From an uncultured Methanosarcinales archaeon (GTDB taxonomy: Archaea; Nanobdellota; Nanobdellia; Woesearchaeales; DSVV01): a DNA stretch of 57,670 bases. Made by a program: the position numbers and the translations under genes. Location: contig CAYXZQ010000005.1 of the NCBI GenBank assembly GCA_964469935.1, forward strand, positions 1 through 57,670. Direction: 5' to 3'. How positions within the stretch are numbered: position 1 is the stretch's first letter; each line of letters starts with the position of its first letter. Under the pieces are notes generated by a model, which searched no databases, was not told the DNA's origin, and saw only the letters and a list, made by a program, of their open reading frames with translations. Positions 5,029 to 46,518 of this stretch are shown in pieces.

Positions 5029-8000
5029 ACTCTCACCTCGGCGATTGTCGGTCCCCAGAGGTATGGCACATCGTGCACGACCCAGGAGTTCACGATGAAG
5101 TTGCTGCTCCCGAAGTTGATGAAGATCCTGCCATCGTTGTTGTAGTCCACGTGGACGAGGAAGTTGTACATCGCCCAGTCATAGGAGTCGTCGTTGTCGA
5201 AGCCCGAGGTGTCATGGCTCGTGTTCGTGTAGGTACACTGGCGCGGTCCTGTGTAATCGGTAGGGACTGAAAGGGTGAAATTGTATCCCAGCTCGTGCTC
5301 GATTGTCCAGTTGCATCCTGTGGCGTTTGCGTGGACCGAGCTGTAGGGGTCTGTGAAATTTATCATGTTGATGAGGCCGGTGTAAAGCAGCGTTGTGTTG
5401 ACAGAACAGTTTGTCGAGTTGAAGGCATTGTCCCCAGTCCCGACGGTGATCGTGTTGGTCTCGCCCTGCTCGAAATAGGGTCCGGGTATGGGTATGGGGA
5501 AGGGATCCCCGAGGTTGGCGTAGTTCGTATTGAAGTGCGAAAGATTGTAGGCGACATGGGTGCCCATGCTGTTGGTCACTGCGACATAGTCTGTCCAGTG
5601 CTCGCCCGAATAAGGGAGAAGGTATGCCTCAAACGGCCTTATCTGTGAAGGTATCTGCAGGTCATACGAGCATCCTCCGAAATCAGGCGACTCGAAGAAG
5701 ATCGGGACCTCGCCGTGGATAATGGGCGGAATTATCGGGGTGTAGTTCAGTGCGATATAGGAATCGTGGTAGAGGTACGATTTCTCGAACGCGCCGCGGA
5801 ATGAGATTATCTGGGATTTCTTGAGGGAGAAGATCAGGCGAAGCTCGTTTGCGATGTTGCCGTATATCTCTGCGAGCCCCTCCGGGTCGTCGCTTGTGAA
5901 GAAATGCGGGCTGGCTGGCGTGTAATCAGGGTCGCATAGCGCCGTGAGGTTGAGGGCAAGGTCCCCTCCGCTTCCTATATTCCCGAAGCCGACCGTGTAG
6001 AGCGACACGCCGTAATTCGAGTTGAAATAGCATGACATGTTGATGAGCTGCTCAGTCGCCCGCTTCTCGATGCTGCTTAGGTCGGAGGACGCCTGGACCT
6101 CCGGTATCTGCGGGCATTCGTTGTCGATTGCACCGTCCGCTCCAGGACAGCATGCCCTTCCGCAGTCGTCGCAGTTGCCGTCATTGAATGTCCCGAACTT
6201 GCCCACGCAGGCATTGGAGATCCCGTCGCTCATGATGACGAGGGCCTTCTGCCTGTTGGTGATGTTAGATGTGAGCTGGACATTCAGCCTGCCCGTGCCG
6301 TCAGAATTCTTGAGCTTGATGGCGAGGACGTTATTGCCCCTGACGAAGTCCGCCGGGGTGACCGTTATGTTTCTGCCGGACTGTGCCCCTGTGTAAGAAT
6401 CCAGGAGATTGTTGTTGAGGTAGATGTCTGCCCCGCTGTCAGATGTTATGCTCATCGCCATGGGTTCATGGAGGTCGTAGAGGCTGTTTACGAAGAAGCT
6501 GTTCCTGTAGAAGGTGTTTTTGCTGTCCCTGGTGAATGCCAGCTGGATGTTGTCGAATGAGATTGAGCCGAATTTCGAGGACGAGTCCCTCAGGAGCTTC
6601 CCGCCCAATGCGATGTAGTAGAAACCCGGGCCCTCGTCCAGGTAGGGCTTGATGTCCTCTGCGAACAGCCCTTCGCCTTCTGTGTCAGGGTCATCCGTCG
6701 TCCATATCTCAGGGGTCGTGTCGCCTCCTTCGGACGACATCTCGCTCCCGAGCCAGTGCACCGCTGTCGACGGCTTCTCAAGGTATCCTTTTATCCATAC
6801 CTGGTCCCCTGTGTCGAAGATGCTGCTTGAGCCGTCGTCCCTCGGGTCCCATCGGTAGTTGAATGAGAGCCAAGCGCTGCCTCCAGGCGAATTCATCGCG
6901 TTGATCATCGCCTGCGTGATGTTCACCTGGATGCCGTAGCTCCCCGAGGCGTCGCTTGAGGTCCTGTCAGCGACCATCTCCAGGTCTCCTGAGCTTGTCG
7001 GGTAGAAGTCCATGTTTCCTGAAAATCCGTAGACGCCCTCCTGCCAGTCCCATCCGTCATCGCCGTTGTTTGTCCAGTTGATTATGACCGTGATGTTGTC
7101 GAATGCCACAAGGGTCTGGCCGGGCCCCCAGACATCCGCACCGCATTCGAGGACATAGCCGAATGTCCTTGAAGTGACGTACGGGGTCATGTCGACCGTC
7201 ACCGGGGTAGGGCCGTCCGGCGGAAGGCTTCCGGCTGTCCATGTCTCGTTCCAGAGTGTCGTCTCGCCCCCGGGATATGTCAGGTTGCAGAAGGCTTTCG
7301 CTGTCCCGTCGAAGTGGCTTGAGTTGATGCTGTGGACAAGGCTTAGCGTCACTTTGTTTGGGGAATCCGACGGCGACTGGAATGTCTGGCTGAGATAGCC
7401 CGTGCTTCCCCTGCCTGAGTCGACGAACCAGTAATGGTGCAGCCCGAATATGTCGGTTGTCGCCGACTTGGAGACCACTGATACGTCGTCCAGGTTCCAT
7501 CCGCTGTATTCCCAGCTTCCATCTGTCTGGGTCCCGAACCTTATCCTGAGGTTCGGATTGCCGTCGGCGTATGCTGAGATGTCAGTCTCCTGCAGGCTCC
7601 AGCTGTCGTCCGTCATCTCTGAAGGGTTTGTCCACACCGTATGCCAGCTCCCGCCTGAGTCAGTAACCCATATCCTTGCCTGGTCATATGAAGGGGCTTC
7701 GACATTTAGCCACCTGTAGTAGCGGAGCACGGTGTCTGTGCATGAAGTGCAGTCTATTGTCGGCGATGTCAGCCTGCTGTTGGCATAGTTCTGGTAGTCG
7801 CCGTTCCAAAAAGGGGATGTGCAGTCCTCGCCCCATATCCTCGAGCCTGAATGGGCAAAGTCCGGGTCCGGATTGCCGTGGGATCCGCCCCCCCTTCCGA
7901 CGGGTGTCCCGTACTGCCATTGCTCCCTTGTCCCGCCCGCGCTCCAGCCCAGGTTGGTCTCGAAATCGTCGGAGAAGACCGCGGTCGAGCCAGGGTCTGA

Positions 8001-31110: not shown

Positions 31111-31166
31111 TTCTTCGGGTGCATCGCCCATGAAAAATTTACTGGACTGTGCATAGCATTCTATTT

Positions 31167-31281
31167 GCGGGGGTGCCGGAGTGGCCAAACGGGACAGGCT
31201 TAGGCGGGGCGTATCGTCCGGTGCGTTCCAAGGAAACCTGTTGGCTTAGTGCCTACGCGGGTTCGAATCCCTCCCCCCGCA
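31167..31281 (+). tRNA. tRNA-Leu(TAG) with a 31-nt intron at 37/38 (31205..31235)
   Basis: Acceptor GCGGGGG/CCCCCGC-A, anticodon stem ACAGG/CCTGT, long variable arm, GTTCGAAT T-loop. Confidence 0.9.
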
Positions 31282-31587
31282 GCCTTTTTATTCGTGCTTT
31301 GCTGGAAAAAAAGCCTGTGCAAATCCTGTGCTGGTGCTTTTTTTAATAGAAAAACAGCACGATATTTCTGATAATTCGTACTACTCGACCCACAGGTTGA
31401 TGTTGCACTTGATTTGGGTTGATAAGGGCGAAGCCCTTACGTGGGAATCCCTCCCCACGGTAAATCAATCCAGGCGGGAATTCAACTGGGTTTATTAAGT
31501 CGTCGCTTTGGCTGCTTTTCAAAAAGCAGTATGGGAACATTTAACTCGGCAGATGTCACTTTTCAATGATACTATCCGGATGATATT

Positions 31588-39106: not shown

Positions 39107-41605
39107 ATGAAGGTGAAGAAGGCAATAAAGCGAATTGCTGCCATCGGAATAGGAGCGTTCATGATGGGCGCGACAGTGATGGGAGCAATGGCCGTAGACC
39201 TTAGCAACTACCCCAATATGTTCATCAAGAACGGGCAGTTCGATGGACTGATAGTAGTGGGCAAGAATGCTAACTCGATCGATTCGATCGGGGCAATCAA
39301 CGTTGCTTTGGGGCTGCAGAAGGCTGCAGTGACAAAGACGACTGTCTGCGGAACACCGACAAGCTCGACCACAGCGGTCAGCGAAGGTGTGAAGATTGAC
39401 AAGAGTAACACGCATATGAGCTATGGCGAAAGCATAGCTGGCGTGCAGGACACCCTGGATTCCGGCGACCTGCCGAACATCCTTGCTGACGACACATACA
39501 GCGAGTCAGAGGGAGACAATAAGAACACTGAGGATTACACACAGGTTCTTAACTTTGTTGACGGCACAGGCCAGATGAAGTATGTCCAGGATGACAACGG
39601 CGCAGAGGATGCAGGAAGCTATCTCTATTTCAGCGACAAGCAGCCTGCTTACTCGTATGTGCTCGAGTTCGACACACCTGTTGAGTATGCTACGACTTCT
39701 GCTGACATCGCAGCTGATTTCGAGAGTTCGACATTCCAGATGCAGGGCCAGGAGTACACGATAACCGATGCTCACCAAACGAGCGGTGTCCTCGATAAGC
39801 TGACCCTCATGGCTGGCGAGTCAGTCATGTGGCTTACCCAGGGGCAGTCTGTGACAAAGAGCATCAACGGCGTGGACCACACGATCACCATGGTCGATGT
39901 CAATGACGGAGGGACCAAGTGCGGTTTCGACGTAGACGGCTCGACTATCTGGATCGATGTTGACGACACCCAGACCGTGAGCGGCGTGACCCTCGGAGTG
40001 ACAGACGCAACTGCTGTGCACACCGAGAACTACGACGCAGACGTCTGTAAGGTCTTCATCGGCGCTGACGAGCTTGTCCTCGAGGACGGGCAGAAGGTCC
40101 AGAAAGGCGGAGTCGACATAGACGGTTCAATGGTCTCTCTTTCCTCTGACAGTAGCCAAGTTACTACAGCAGGCGAGTGGACCGGTCTGAACATCTCATG
40201 GACACCGGACGACGACACGTATCTTGCAGCTGGCGATGAGCTTGTCGACCCTGTATTCGGGAACTTCAAGTTCGTTTTCGGCGGAATCTCAAAGACGACT
40301 GAGAACATCGAGATGACAGCAAGCTCCTCTGACGGGCAGCTGACATTCGTGAACACAGACGGCAAGGATGTGACCATACCGTATGTCCTGGATGAGTCAG
40401 TAGCATCTCCGACAGACGTGGTCTTCGGTGACAACTACGACTCCAAGCTGTTGTACTACGCTGACGGATCCAACGGTCACAATACATGTGACGGCAACGG
40501 AGATGTCAAGGACTGCCAGAACTCGGAATGGCTTGTTGTTGAGAACAAGGAAGCACATGTCCTGAAGATCAACAACATAGACACGTCGAACCAGCAGATC
40601 GATTTCGAGGACATTACCTACGACACCCTGGACAAGGACAACGACTACACGAATGGCGTAGCGACAAACGTATATGTCTCAGGCGTAGGGACCCTCTCAG
40701 TTACTGTCGACGATTCTGGAGCAACCCAGACCGTGACAATAAGTGAGGCCAGCCTTGGCGACCCGGAAACGATCGAGTCAGACTATGGCGCAACGTTGAC
40801 TCAGTTTGAGAACGTCGGTGGCATGATCCAGCTTGCCTGGAAAGAGAACACCGACTCGTCGATGTCAAACAACAACGTGACGACGATCAACACGACCATC
40901 TTCTACGACAGCGGCACGGACGAGACCCTGAAGATTGCGAACCCGCATTTTGATTCAATCAGCGGTTCTGATCTTTTCGGCGGAGTTGGCGGTTTCGACC
41001 TCTCTGACACCGACAACGACAACAAGAGATGGGCAACCACGTACGGCACGATAGTCGAGTACGACAAGGAGAACAAGGATGACCTGACAATCGTCCACCC
41101 GGACGACTGGGTCAGCGGTGATGTCTACATTGCACCGACATCCGCAGCTCTATCCACAGTAGAGGGCAGCGGTGAAGGTTGCACGACAAGCGAGAAAATC
41201 AACCCGATACCGTCCACAGTGAACAAGTTTGATACAGAGGTATTGTCCACGTATCAGACGACGAATGTCATCAGTGTAGGCGGTCCGTGTGCTAACTCGC
41301 TTTCAGCAGCACTGCTCGGTAATCCGGAAGTGTGCTACCAGGGCTTCGAGGAAGGCAAAGCTCTCATACAGCTTTTCCAGAACGGGAACAATGTAGCACT
41401 TGTCGTAGCAGGCGGTACAGGACAGGACACGAAGCTTGCATCAGAGATCCTGCAGAACTATGAGAACTATGCTCTGTCAGGCATGGAGATGGAAGCAACC
41501 ACAGTCAGTGAGAGTGCCCTGAAAGTCACGCCTGTGACAGCAACGACCACAACGACGACCACAACGACGACCACAACGACGACGAACACATCGGACATGG
41601 AATAG
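39107..41605 (+). CDS. S-layer protein
   Basis: Signal peptide MKVKKAIKRIAAIG...GAMA, DLSNYP..F, IVVG..A, C-terminal ISVGGPCANS..A and LVVAG.T..DT..A, as in the euryarchaeal/DPANN S-layer family; acidic; GGAGGTG Shine-Dalgarno. Confidence 0.9.
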   Translation: MKVKKAIKRIAAIGIGAFMMGATVMGAMAVDLSNYPNMFIKNGQFDGLIVVGKNANSIDSIGAINVALGLQKAAVTKTTVCGTPTSSTTAVSEGVKIDKSNTHMSYGESIAGVQDTLDSGDLPNILADDTYSESEGDNKNTEDYTQVLNFVDGTGQMKYVQDDNGAEDAGSYLYFSDKQPAYSYVLEFDTPVEYATTSADIAADFESSTFQMQGQEYTITDAHQTSGVLDKLTLMAGESVMWLTQGQSVTKSINGVDHTITMVDVNDGGTKCGFDVDGSTIWIDVDDTQTVSGVTLGVTDATAVHTENYDADVCKVFIGADELVLEDGQKVQKGGVDIDGSMVSLSSDSSQVTTAGEWTGLNISWTPDDDTYLAAGDELVDPVFGNFKFVFGGISKTTENIEMTASSSDGQLTFVNTDGKDVTIPYVLDESVASPTDVVFGDNYDSKLLYYADGSNGHNTCDGNGDVKDCQNSEWLVVENKEAHVLKINNIDTSNQQIDFEDITYDTLDKDNDYTNGVATNVYVSGVGTLSVTVDDSGATQTVTISEASLGDPETIESDYGATLTQFENVGGMIQLAWKENTDSSMSNNNVTTINTTIFYDSGTDETLKIANPHFDSISGSDLFGGVGGFDLSDTDNDNKRWATTYGTIVEYDKENKDDLTIVHPDDWVSGDVYIAPTSAALSTVEGSGEGCTTSEKINPIPSTVNKFDTEVLSTYQTTNVISVGGPCANSLSAALLGNPEVCYQGFEEGKALIQLFQNGNNVALVVAGGTGQDTKLASEILQNYENYALSGMEMEATTVSESALKVTPVTATTTTTTTTTTTTTTNTSDME
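41543..41584 (+). repeat. 12-bp tandem repeat (ACAACGACGACC) encoding a 14-Thr tract
   Basis: Directly visible at the 3' end of the S-layer gene. Confidence 0.9.
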
Positions 41606-45400: not shown

Positions 45401-45493
45401 ACGGCAGTGGTCCAACGGCTAAGACACGACCCTCCCAGGCAATATTTATTGCGGAGTGAGGTCGTTATCCGGGTTCGAATCCCGGCTGCCGTA
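45401..45493 (+). tRNA. tRNA-Gly(CCC) with a 21-nt intron at 37/38 (45438..45458)
   Basis: Acceptor ACGGCAG/CTGCCGT-A, anticodon stem CGACC/GGTCG, T arm CCGGG-TTCGAAT-CCCGG, clean bulge-helix-bulge (CTCC/GGAG). Confidence 0.9.
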
Positions 45494-45735
45494 TATTTCT
45501 TCTCTTGGTATTTGATTCCTATCCGGGATTCGAACGTCTGCGGAAAACTGGCGTTTTCCTTGACCCCTCGCTCGTCCTGGGACGGGCTTCAGGGAATCCC
45601 GGCTGCCGTATATTTCTTCTCTTGGTATTTGATTCCTATCCGGGATTCGAACGTCTGCGGAAAACTGGCGTTTTCCTTGACCCCTCGCTCGTCCTGGGAC
45701 GGGCTTCAGGGAATCCCGGCTGCCGTATATTTCTT
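45477..45735 (+). repeat. Perfect 117-bp tandem repeat (2 full copies plus 25 nt), each unit starting with the tRNA-Gly 3' end
   Basis: GAATCCCGGCTGCCGTATATTTCTT at 45477, 45594 and 45711; the intervening sequence is identical. Confidence 0.95.
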
Positions 45736-45784
45736 TAGGATCTGATGATCCAAAGGATATCTGTATGAAAATCTATTAAATCTA

Positions 45785-45944
45785 ATTGATTATAATAATA
45801 TATCTAAAAACATATAAACTATAACTAATATAAATATAATCTTATACTGAATTAGTATACTATTCCTGCTATTTTTCGAAAGGTTTATATACCAGTTGCA
45901 CCCATAAAAATATAAATTTGTATCTTATTGATTATAATAATATA
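45785..45944. promoter_or_regulatory. Two identical 18-bp sites (ATTGATTATAATAATATA) flanking a TATA box upstream of a wHTH gene
   Basis: Copies at 45785..45802 and 45927..45944; AAGGTTTATATA near 45880. Confidence 0.55.
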
Positions 45945-45960
45945 CAAAAAGGGATACTAG

Positions 45961-46518
45961 ATGATTGAAAACAAGCTCGAGATGGACATCATCAGGCTGT
46001 ACGACAATAATCTTGTCAATCTTTTTTCCATAAACCAGATAGCCTCGATGCTCGGCAAGAAGTATCCCTATGTCAACAGGAAGGTCACCGAGATGCTCGA
46101 GGAGGGAATCCTGAACAAGACTGTCGTCGGCAAGTCATACCTGTGCTCCCTGAATTTCACAAATGAGAGGACAATAATAATGCTCTCCCTGATGGAAGCC
46201 TCGAAGAAGAAGCCTGCATCCTGGCAAAAGGCAGCAGCTTTCATCGAAAAGACCAGGCTTTCCATGACAACGCACTGCGTCGTATCCTACGGAGACAGGC
46301 TGCTCTTCGTCATAGAGGACCTCAGGGACCGAAGAAAGGTCGAGAGGGAAATCCCGGGCGCTGTGGTGGCTGACAAGGGAGAGTTTCTGGACATGCTGGG
46401 GGCAGAGAAGGAGCTCTTCATTGCCCACGCTGTACTGTACGGCAAGGAGAGGTTCTTCGAGCTCCTGACGCTTGAGCTGGACGAGCTCAAGAAGCGGCAC
46501 TCTCCCCTGAAATACTGA
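45961..46518 (+). CDS. Winged-HTH protein, putative regulator
   Basis: FSINQIASMLGKKYPYVNRKVTEMLEEGILNKTVVGKSYLC is wHTH-like; the C-terminus may be a degenerate nucleotidyltransferase-like domain. Confidence 0.75.
   Translation: MIENKLEMDIIRLYDNNLVNLFSINQIASMLGKKYPYVNRKVTEMLEEGILNKTVVGKSYLCSLNFTNERTIIMLSLMEASKKKPASWQKAAAFIEKTRLSMTTHCVVSYGDRLLFVIEDLRDRRKVEREIPGAVVADKGEFLDMLGAEKELFIAHAVLYGKERFFELLTLELDELKKRHSPLKY

Follow-up and report, generated by a model that had tools for sequence, protein, structure and literature searches.

The window, that is, the whole stretch of 57,670 nucleotides that was analysed, comes from an archaeon with intron-rich tRNA genes and carries, directly behind a tRNA-Gly(CCC) gene, a tandem array composed largely of pieces of that gene and of a hairpin-rich core (Table 1). 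ARAGORN run without the intron setting returned 0 genes, and the tRNA-Gly(CCC) gene was recovered by ARAGORN with introns together with Rfam RF00005. The array consists of two identical 117-bp units plus 25 bp. Each unit begins with tRNA positions 58–73 and 8 trailer nucleotides; after a spacer come positions 53–65 in inverted copy, a single base for position 57, and a 58-nt core, the last base of which abuts the next copy of tRNA position 58. The tRNA copy in the unit amounts to 16 nt (positions 58–73), and CCA is not encoded. Both 13-nt inverted T-arm copies are 100% complementary to 45473–45485, and the G that directly follows the first of them (45536) tracks host position 57.

The initial annotation had described the 117-bp tandem unit behind the tRNA gene, the inverted T-arm copy in both units, and the two hairpins, all of which we recovered as it gave them. 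Its start of the repeat at 45477 was right as to period and extent, except that the tRNA piece itself begins at 45478 (position 58), the preceding G being the last base of the core. It had also seen no integrase or transposase nearby, and the flanking open reading frames, as far as checked, gave no Pfam match of this kind.

Table 1. Features of the tRNA-Gly(CCC) locus and of the array behind it (window coordinates).
Feature	Position	Strand	Details
tRNA-Gly(CCC) gene, host of the element	45401..45493	+	ARAGORN with introns; Rfam RF00005, E 2.7e-9
Landmarks of tRNA-Gly(CCC)			G53 = 45473, T55 = 45475, G57 = 45477, A58 = 45478, discriminator 45493
Intron of tRNA-Gly(CCC)	45438..45458	+	21 nt, canonical 37/38, bulge-helix-bulge, outside the element; ARAGORN with introns
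Tandem array	45477..45735		TRF: period 117, 2.2 copies, 100% matches
Duplicated segment, copy one	45478..45501	+	tRNA positions 58–73 and 8 nt of T-rich trailer
Spacer, unit 1	45502..45522	+	
Inverted copy of tRNA positions 53–65, unit 1	45523..45535	-	
Core copy 1	45537..45594	.	58 nt, two hairpins; ends directly before the position-58 copy
Hairpin 1 of core copy 1	45542..45559		Upper stem
Hairpin 2 of core copy 1	45570..45587		Upper stem; basal stem 45565–45568 with 45591–45594
Duplicated segment, copy two	45595..45618	+	Positions 58–73 and trailer
Inverted T-arm copy, unit 2	45640..45652	-	
Core copy 2	45654..45711	.	Identical to core copy 1
Duplicated segment, final copy	45712..45735	+	Continues into unique downstream DNA

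The tandem array is real and not an assembly artefact. In sequencing run X1, which may be the source sample, a 142-nt unitig over the repeat has a depth of 9.85, against 5.4–6.5 on the flanks, and a 35-nt unitig crosses the junction of units 1 and 2 at single-copy depth (5.6); in run X5, which bears another study code, a 147-nt contig (45589–45735) contains the same junction without a mismatch. A copy-number check by spanning reads, proposed earlier, thus succeeded for the unit junction in two runs and not for the exact number: two copies are likely, not proven, because no read or contig spans the whole array. This circumstance and the identity of the two units would fit a tandem that arose by chance at this locus or in assembly, without an underlying element, but the junction is present in both runs, a congener assembled as a single contig carries 2–3 tandem copies at four tRNA genes, and the core belongs to a family with fixed ends (see below); such an explanation is extremely improbable and, exact copy number aside, is refuted as to the element itself. 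In run X2, the spacer of unit 1 has diverged, with five substitutions and two one-base indels listed at 45499–45511, and the inverted copy is retained.

The window contains other repeats. A 23-nt A+T-rich direct repeat (96%; 45780–45802 and 45922–45944), with a similar one in genome G002, lies upstream of a 185-aa open reading frame at 45961 and possibly represents regulator binding sites. A short ACG/ACC/ACA tandem at 41543–41590 encodes the Thr-rich tail of an 832-aa S-layer-like protein.

Distribution of the core and occupancy of tRNA genes

A covariance model of the core gave 16 matches at E ≤ 0.002 in the genome to which the window belongs (G000), distributed over 10 tRNA loci, at each of which the core is joined to the end of that locus's own tRNA. 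The initial annotation had suggested looking for the inner hairpins at other tRNA genes with tRNA-specific flanks, and their recurrence here and in relatives supports and extends its reading of a non-autonomous tRNA-targeting mini-element with tandem amplification. With an improved covariance model, the core was detected in 11 of the 28 genomes of the family, in 10 of 151 order genomes, and in 13 of 151 phylum genomes, all 13 within the order; these counts take in G000 and are lower bounds, because 34–150 candidates were scored per genome. All 19 independent metagenome loci, a few of which are duplicates, lie directly behind a T arm (pattern scan; 18 by script and 1 by eye). Loci elsewhere carry one to four cores, and a few weak matches have no tRNA nearby (e.g., L115, L165, and L166). 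Among genome contigs, the core pattern had four matches, all bacterial and at loci lacking a tRNA, and two core patterns had 0 matches among viral contigs. Many ARAGORN isotype labels are wrong because of the introns, and host tRNAs were therefore matched by sequence. The units are related to one another, and the model that detected them was itself derived from them; the shuffle tests given below overstate their independence.

Orthologous tRNA genes are patchily occupied. The tRNA-Gly(CCC) gene is followed by two units in G000, one in G002, and none in G001 and G003; tRNA-Gly(GCC) by one in G000 and none in G002; and tRNA-Gly(TCC) by none in G000, two in G002, and one in G003. That the same gene is empty in two congeners (G001 and G003) and single-copy in G002 agrees with the mini-element reading. 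The search for empty sites proposed along with that reading was successful between species and not within the species: the examined sequencing runs showed neither a same-species empty allele nor a fresh insertion, so that presence and absence between species could reflect loss rather than gain. The Gly(CCC) insertion is old, since the units of G000 and G002 look orthologous.

Further observations concern introns and other hairpin modules. In G000, the tRNA-Gly(TCC) gene (L155, contig C25, ~7200–7340), which has no unit, contains by eye an apparent bulge-helix-bulge intron in the T loop (59/60), and the Gly(TCC) genes of G002 and G003, with 2 and 1 units, have no T-loop intron; such introns might shield against insertion, as judged from this one case only. 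A second intron-bearing tRNA gene of the window (31166–31460; labelled Ser by ARAGORN, probably Leu) has a different hairpin-rich trailer that closes with a duplicate of the gene's 3′ end, starting from position 58 at 31446; in G002, the core type of this trailer is present behind tRNA-Pro (L073) as a tandem of at least three copies. Upstream of tRNA-Ser(CGA), copies of the 5′ end (~24 nt) are split by another hairpin module, two in G000 (L027, contig C36) and one in G002 (L065); they are a 5′-end counterpart of the position-58 units. Two loci from genera without a core-model match (L015 in G010 and L019 in G009) nevertheless show tRNA 3′-end duplications with a different hairpin module. Many tRNA introns of G000, 41–46 nt long, consist of two hairpins, and some modules seen behind tRNA genes recur inside introns of congeners (L004 and L034); the core model itself matched none of these and had no match inside any intron of G000. 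At the tRNA-Thr hot spot of G003, an array of cassettes includes DUF5752, and pairs of nucleotidyltransferase and HepT-like genes end beside tRNA-Thr 3′ fragments (L152, contig C12, 1310–3500, and L153).

Junctions, host-derived flanks, and fold of the core

The cores are 38–62 nt long, fold end to end into two abutting hairpins, and occur in three layouts. In layout A, a reversed core interrupts the copied tRNA segment cleanly between positions 55 and 56: 14/14 units join after 55 and 13/14 resume at C56, the left junction being ambiguous by one C in most units and showing no duplication in the two that begin with T or G. In layout C, the core is forward and sits cleanly between 57 and 58, in one case at a tRNA gene, behind a small cargo gene (L059), and in the other in a non-tRNA hairpin with a 7-nt loop (L040). 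Layout B, which is that of the window and the commonest, leads from an inverted copy of the host T arm through the core to positions 58–73. Of the 16 metagenome units that the script could rejoin, none extends upstream of 58. The 55^56 and 57^58 sites are symmetric about the centre of the T loop, one per strand; the sequence before the cut is GGTT or GATT in most units and GGTG at tRNA-Thr, and neither end of the core overlaps the T loop. At its far end the duplication is variable, the exact repeat passing the discriminator in 28 of 49 loci and reaching up to 38 nt. Where the gene lacks CCA, the copies gained it in 1 of 46 loci, which counts against mature tRNA as the template; the 49-locus set behind these two counts excludes loci that carry cores of other families.

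Some loci depart from the three layouts. L114, L116, and L120 are hybrids in which an inverted T-arm copy and a loop of 3–4 nt precede a layout-A unit. The L040 core, also listed as L154 (G013, contig C9, ~33100), occupies the same loop position in a hairpin that matches no tRNA of that assembly and is nested in a larger inverted repeat between toxin-antitoxin-like genes.

Most of the inverted copy derives from the host. In 42 units (those containing N and the layout-A and hybrid units left out), it matches the T stem of its own host at 3.81 of 5 positions, against 2.94 for shuffled hosts (0/10000), and the values are 3.75 and 2.92 after thinning to 32 units. The same holds out of sample for 18 metagenome units (2.44 of 4 versus 1.5 shuffled, 0/10000). 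The loop letter, a pyrimidine, agrees with host position 57 in 40 of the 42 units and, out of sample, in 18/18, and where the stem contains G-U pairs the inverted reading is followed in 4/9 and the direct reading in 0/9. Against an exclusively local origin, identity is at most 0.5 beyond four stem bases, and the thinned set gives only a weak signal for a copy that reaches into the acceptor stem (307/10000). Some leaders are also common to different tRNAs, and part of the inverted copy may accordingly travel with the element. A two-step origin, with the palindrome first and the core later, was rejected, no core-less palindrome of the predicted form having been found in 301 genomes.

The core has a conserved fold, which is probably that of DNA. 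Both basal stems are fully paired in 26 of 39 cores (one core longer than 70 nt left out), versus 2.6% of shuffles, and compensatory changes are present; the core of the window reaches 6/7, not 7/7, on its basal stems. T-run loops are stable in DNA. High stability in DNA is likewise described for d(GNA) and GCGNNAGC loops (PMC3201870 and PMC13037366). GNA, GNNA, or T-run loops account for 34/66 loops on one strand and 1/66 on the other, and half of the GNNA loops (7/14) are GNRA and therefore stable as RNA as well. In layout A the favoured strand corresponds to the transcript, in layout B to the template, and transcription therefore does not set it. Folding energies of the whole core are nearly equal on both strands (DNA −11.3 versus −11.0) and were not used as evidence. 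On a first MAFFT alignment, RNAalifold recovered 6 pairs only and not hairpin 1, and in a model-fitted count the score hardly differed when the structure was shifted by −1; because of these few pairs, and because the model-fitted count is off register in A runs, structure was scored core by core.

Origin of the units

We consider it probable, at roughly 0.6, that the 117-bp unit belongs to a family of gene-less two-hairpin inserts at T-loop centres, which an enzyme acting in trans inserts as DNA, with repair regenerating the tRNA end and the direct repeats doubling the unit. The position-58 junction, the mirror site 55^56, and the host-templated inverted copy point to an enzyme-made origin. 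The element at the DNA level is firmer than the proposed chemistry: we observe the family, its fixed symmetric junctions, the host-derived flanks, the variable far end, and the strand-biased fold, and we infer the joining and repair steps. A nick-and-join enzyme supplied in trans would recognise the folded single-stranded core together with the T-arm hairpin and make the fixed junction. Template-switching repair would resolve the other end by copying the 3′ end of the gene plus trailer of varying length, and in layout B a fold-back during this repair would also yield the inverted host copy; insertions without an intact tRNA upstream would be lost. The second unit here could have arisen by slippage or unequal exchange between the 24-bp repeats, with no need of a special enzyme, and the tandem of the window is likely a recent doubling of one unit, not special by itself.

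Candidate enzymes were sought in genomes that are 86–98% complete. IS110 and Cas1 were found in none of five genomes, reverse transcriptases (RTs) in none of G000, G001, and G002, and Y1 transposases in none of G000, G001, G002, and G024; three Y1 loci of G003 and G042 have palindromes and ends that are, by eye, unrelated to the core, and GIY-YIG was found solely in a UvrC-sized protein. Tyrosine recombinases occur in 28/28 genomes of the family, and the XerA-like ones are the sole candidate class found in every family genome, a universality that is no evidence of a role. Both tyrosine recombinases of G000 lie on contigs other than that of the window, and no tRNA was present in the stretch fetched around 11 of the 12 best recombinase loci. 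At L120, in a distant relative, an XerA-like gene ends ~10 nt from a unit.

The same recombinases invite a different explanation, in which ordinary tRNA-targeting tyrosine integrases left the units behind as attachment-site scars or cargo-less mini-islands, with the core as an attP arm and the tandem as the outcome of repeated integration of a small circle. A tRNA gene with a displaced 3′ fragment is given as the signature of such islands (PMC4383910); tRNA-Thr fragments of G003, one with a core and one without, separate gene cassettes; and the presence of tyrosine recombinases throughout the family and beside the L120 unit fits as well. However, neither core end overlaps the T loop, and two sites are used according to orientation; the far end of the repeat varies, the host-specific inverted copy is foreign to the island signature, 11/12 of the best recombinase loci lack a tRNA in the fetched stretch, and the two core patterns met with no viral contig. 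The clean junctions of layouts A and C weaken this explanation, which we hold to be unlikely. Selection for an RNA, either a read-through trailer that would capture the T arm and throttle tRNA-Gly maturation or a small RNA that is processed as E. coli RtT and RrA/B/F are, appears quite unlikely, even though the stems covary and three tRNA-linked repeats (TLRs) of E. coli rRNA operons are reported to be transcribed, processed, and bound by Hfq and CsrA in vitro (PMC8144298). The initial annotation had proposed a cis-antisense trailer, which finds no support as the origin or common purpose of the units: the core occurs in both orientations, and in the layout of the window the favoured, DNA-type loops lie opposite the transcript, on the non-transcribed strand. 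Patchy occupancy of orthologous genes and decay of the inverted copies past 4–5 nt of stem also argue against a kept RNA, and the T-rich trailer precedes the inverted copy and may end most transcripts. What survives of the proposal is the pairing with the real T arm as a plausible side effect, predicted by folding models, which ignore tertiary structure and modifications, at P 0.73–0.98 from 45560 onward and P 0.21 at 45536. Capture of the T arm in read-through RNA is accordingly possible as such an effect, and a later effect of this kind can coexist with a DNA origin.

Copying of RNA into DNA, with tRNA as primer or template of reverse transcription and the copy stopping at modified A58, would explain why the boundary is fixed at 58 both in archaeal units and in 14/14 E. 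coli TLRs, and a boundary at position 58 matches the length of tRNA that retroelements copy. Yet CCA was gained in 1/46 loci, genomic trailer is included in 28/49, a second fixed site (55^56) is used in the opposite orientation, and G000, G001, and G002 have no RT; with mature tRNA as the template, this route is largely excluded, and we rate it as very unlikely overall. Insertion of a folded DNA element in trans, followed by repair of the gene, remains the reading that we prefer and that we compare with known systems below.

Comparison with known systems

No published description of such units in archaea was found, in literature consulted mostly without subscription papers. New here are the two clean sites placed symmetrically, host templating as tested out of sample, the strand bias of the loops, and the position-58 junction common with the E. 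coli TLRs. Exact test substrates follow from the proposed route, namely a T-arm hairpin and a two-hairpin DNA of 50–60 nt. The family also has a bearing on small DPANN genomes, in the remodelling of tRNA loci and the gathering of toxin-antitoxin-like cassettes there.

Several known classes were rejected. The inverted arms derive from the host tRNA and change with the host, which speaks against a MITE; three layout-A units lack, by eye, the 4-bp central helix of an archaeal tRNA intron, and both orientations occur. The crossover of an integron attC falls between the G and TT of the core site. An attC cassette was rejected, as the junctions lie 2 or 4 bases further on and the recombinases of three relatives fall below the IntI cut-off.

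PATEs and IS200/IS605 elements, as described in PMC3119063, have in common with the units that they are transposase-free, lack terminal inverted repeats, and carry two imperfect palindromes, and the clean core junctions of layouts A and C, without a short target duplication, add to the likeness. Unlike them, the units sit within a duplicated tRNA end with an exact run of up to 38 nt (except for L040, the hairpin of which is unmatched to a tRNA), and their target is a position in a hairpin loop, with TT or TG before the cut; three carriers have no Y1 gene, and the ends of the Y1 elements of G003 and G042 are unrelated. Tyrosine-integrase islands resemble the units in the whole tRNA upstream, the 3′ fragment in the same orientation downstream, the tandem arrays, and the occasional cargo cassettes (PMC4383910). 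According to the same source, such islands measure 2–200 kb and have the integrase inside, whereas the unit is 117 bp long with no integrase, no common overlap at the core junctions, a variable far end, and an inverted host copy. Casposons, archaeal as well, likewise read the T-loop region of tRNA genes and duplicate target DNA, but in the account of PMC5137440 they have terminal inverted repeats, Cas1, and a fixed 15-bp duplication overlapping the gene by 5 bp, none of which is seen here. Insertions with long target duplication share the long direct repeats of variable length and the lack of a mobility gene; those described in PMC2853133 involve restriction-modification genes and varied sites, in contrast to the non-coding insert with one T-loop-fixed end found here.

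The closest parallel in layout is provided by the TLRs of E. coli, described in PMC8144298 as hairpin-rich, non-coding units behind tRNA and rRNA genes, with 1–5 per locus, the last 18–19 bp of which copy the 3′ end of the upstream gene. The same source traces them to Egan and Landy 1978 and Rudd 1999 and gives no known function as of 2021. In K-12, for which 22 TLRs are on record, 14/14 tRNA-linked units found by pattern rejoin at 58 (7 at A58 and 7 at C), none of them extending into 55–57; an exact 9-nt inverted T-loop copy is present in 2/14 and a weaker one in 5 more, and the TLR cores end in abutting hairpins. The array of the window resembles them in standing directly behind a tRNA gene with 2 units that each close with a duplicate of that gene's 3′ end, starting likewise at 58. 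There is, however, no sequence homology of the core: RtT (rttR), which lies behind tyrT-tyrV and which we take to be Rfam RF00391, had no match in the window at E ≤ 5 in an Rfam search, and the covariance model R2, run against two E. coli TLR loci, found no TLR core and scored tRNAs only (E ≥ 0.23). The archaeal copies lack CCA and extend into the trailer, the archaeal family includes cores that are reversed (55^56) or set cleanly in forward direction, and TLRs of E. coli are also seen downstream of 5S rRNA. By eye, the TLR cores seem to have loops of the favoured DNA type on the transcribed strand, which counts against the reading preferred here. The element thus resembles a TLR in layout and, judged by its sequence, is not a member of that group. 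A tentative and in our view less than even prospect is that both the archaeal inserts and the E. coli TLRs arose by a single, undescribed route of DNA insertion common to the two domains, in which a folded single-stranded two-hairpin element would enter either strand of the T-loop centre by means of a widespread enzyme, perhaps a Xer-like recombinase acting on folded DNA, and the gene would be restored by fold-back repair. If so, the origin of the TLRs, known since 1978, would be explained, and these units would rank as the smallest known tRNA-targeting mobile elements.
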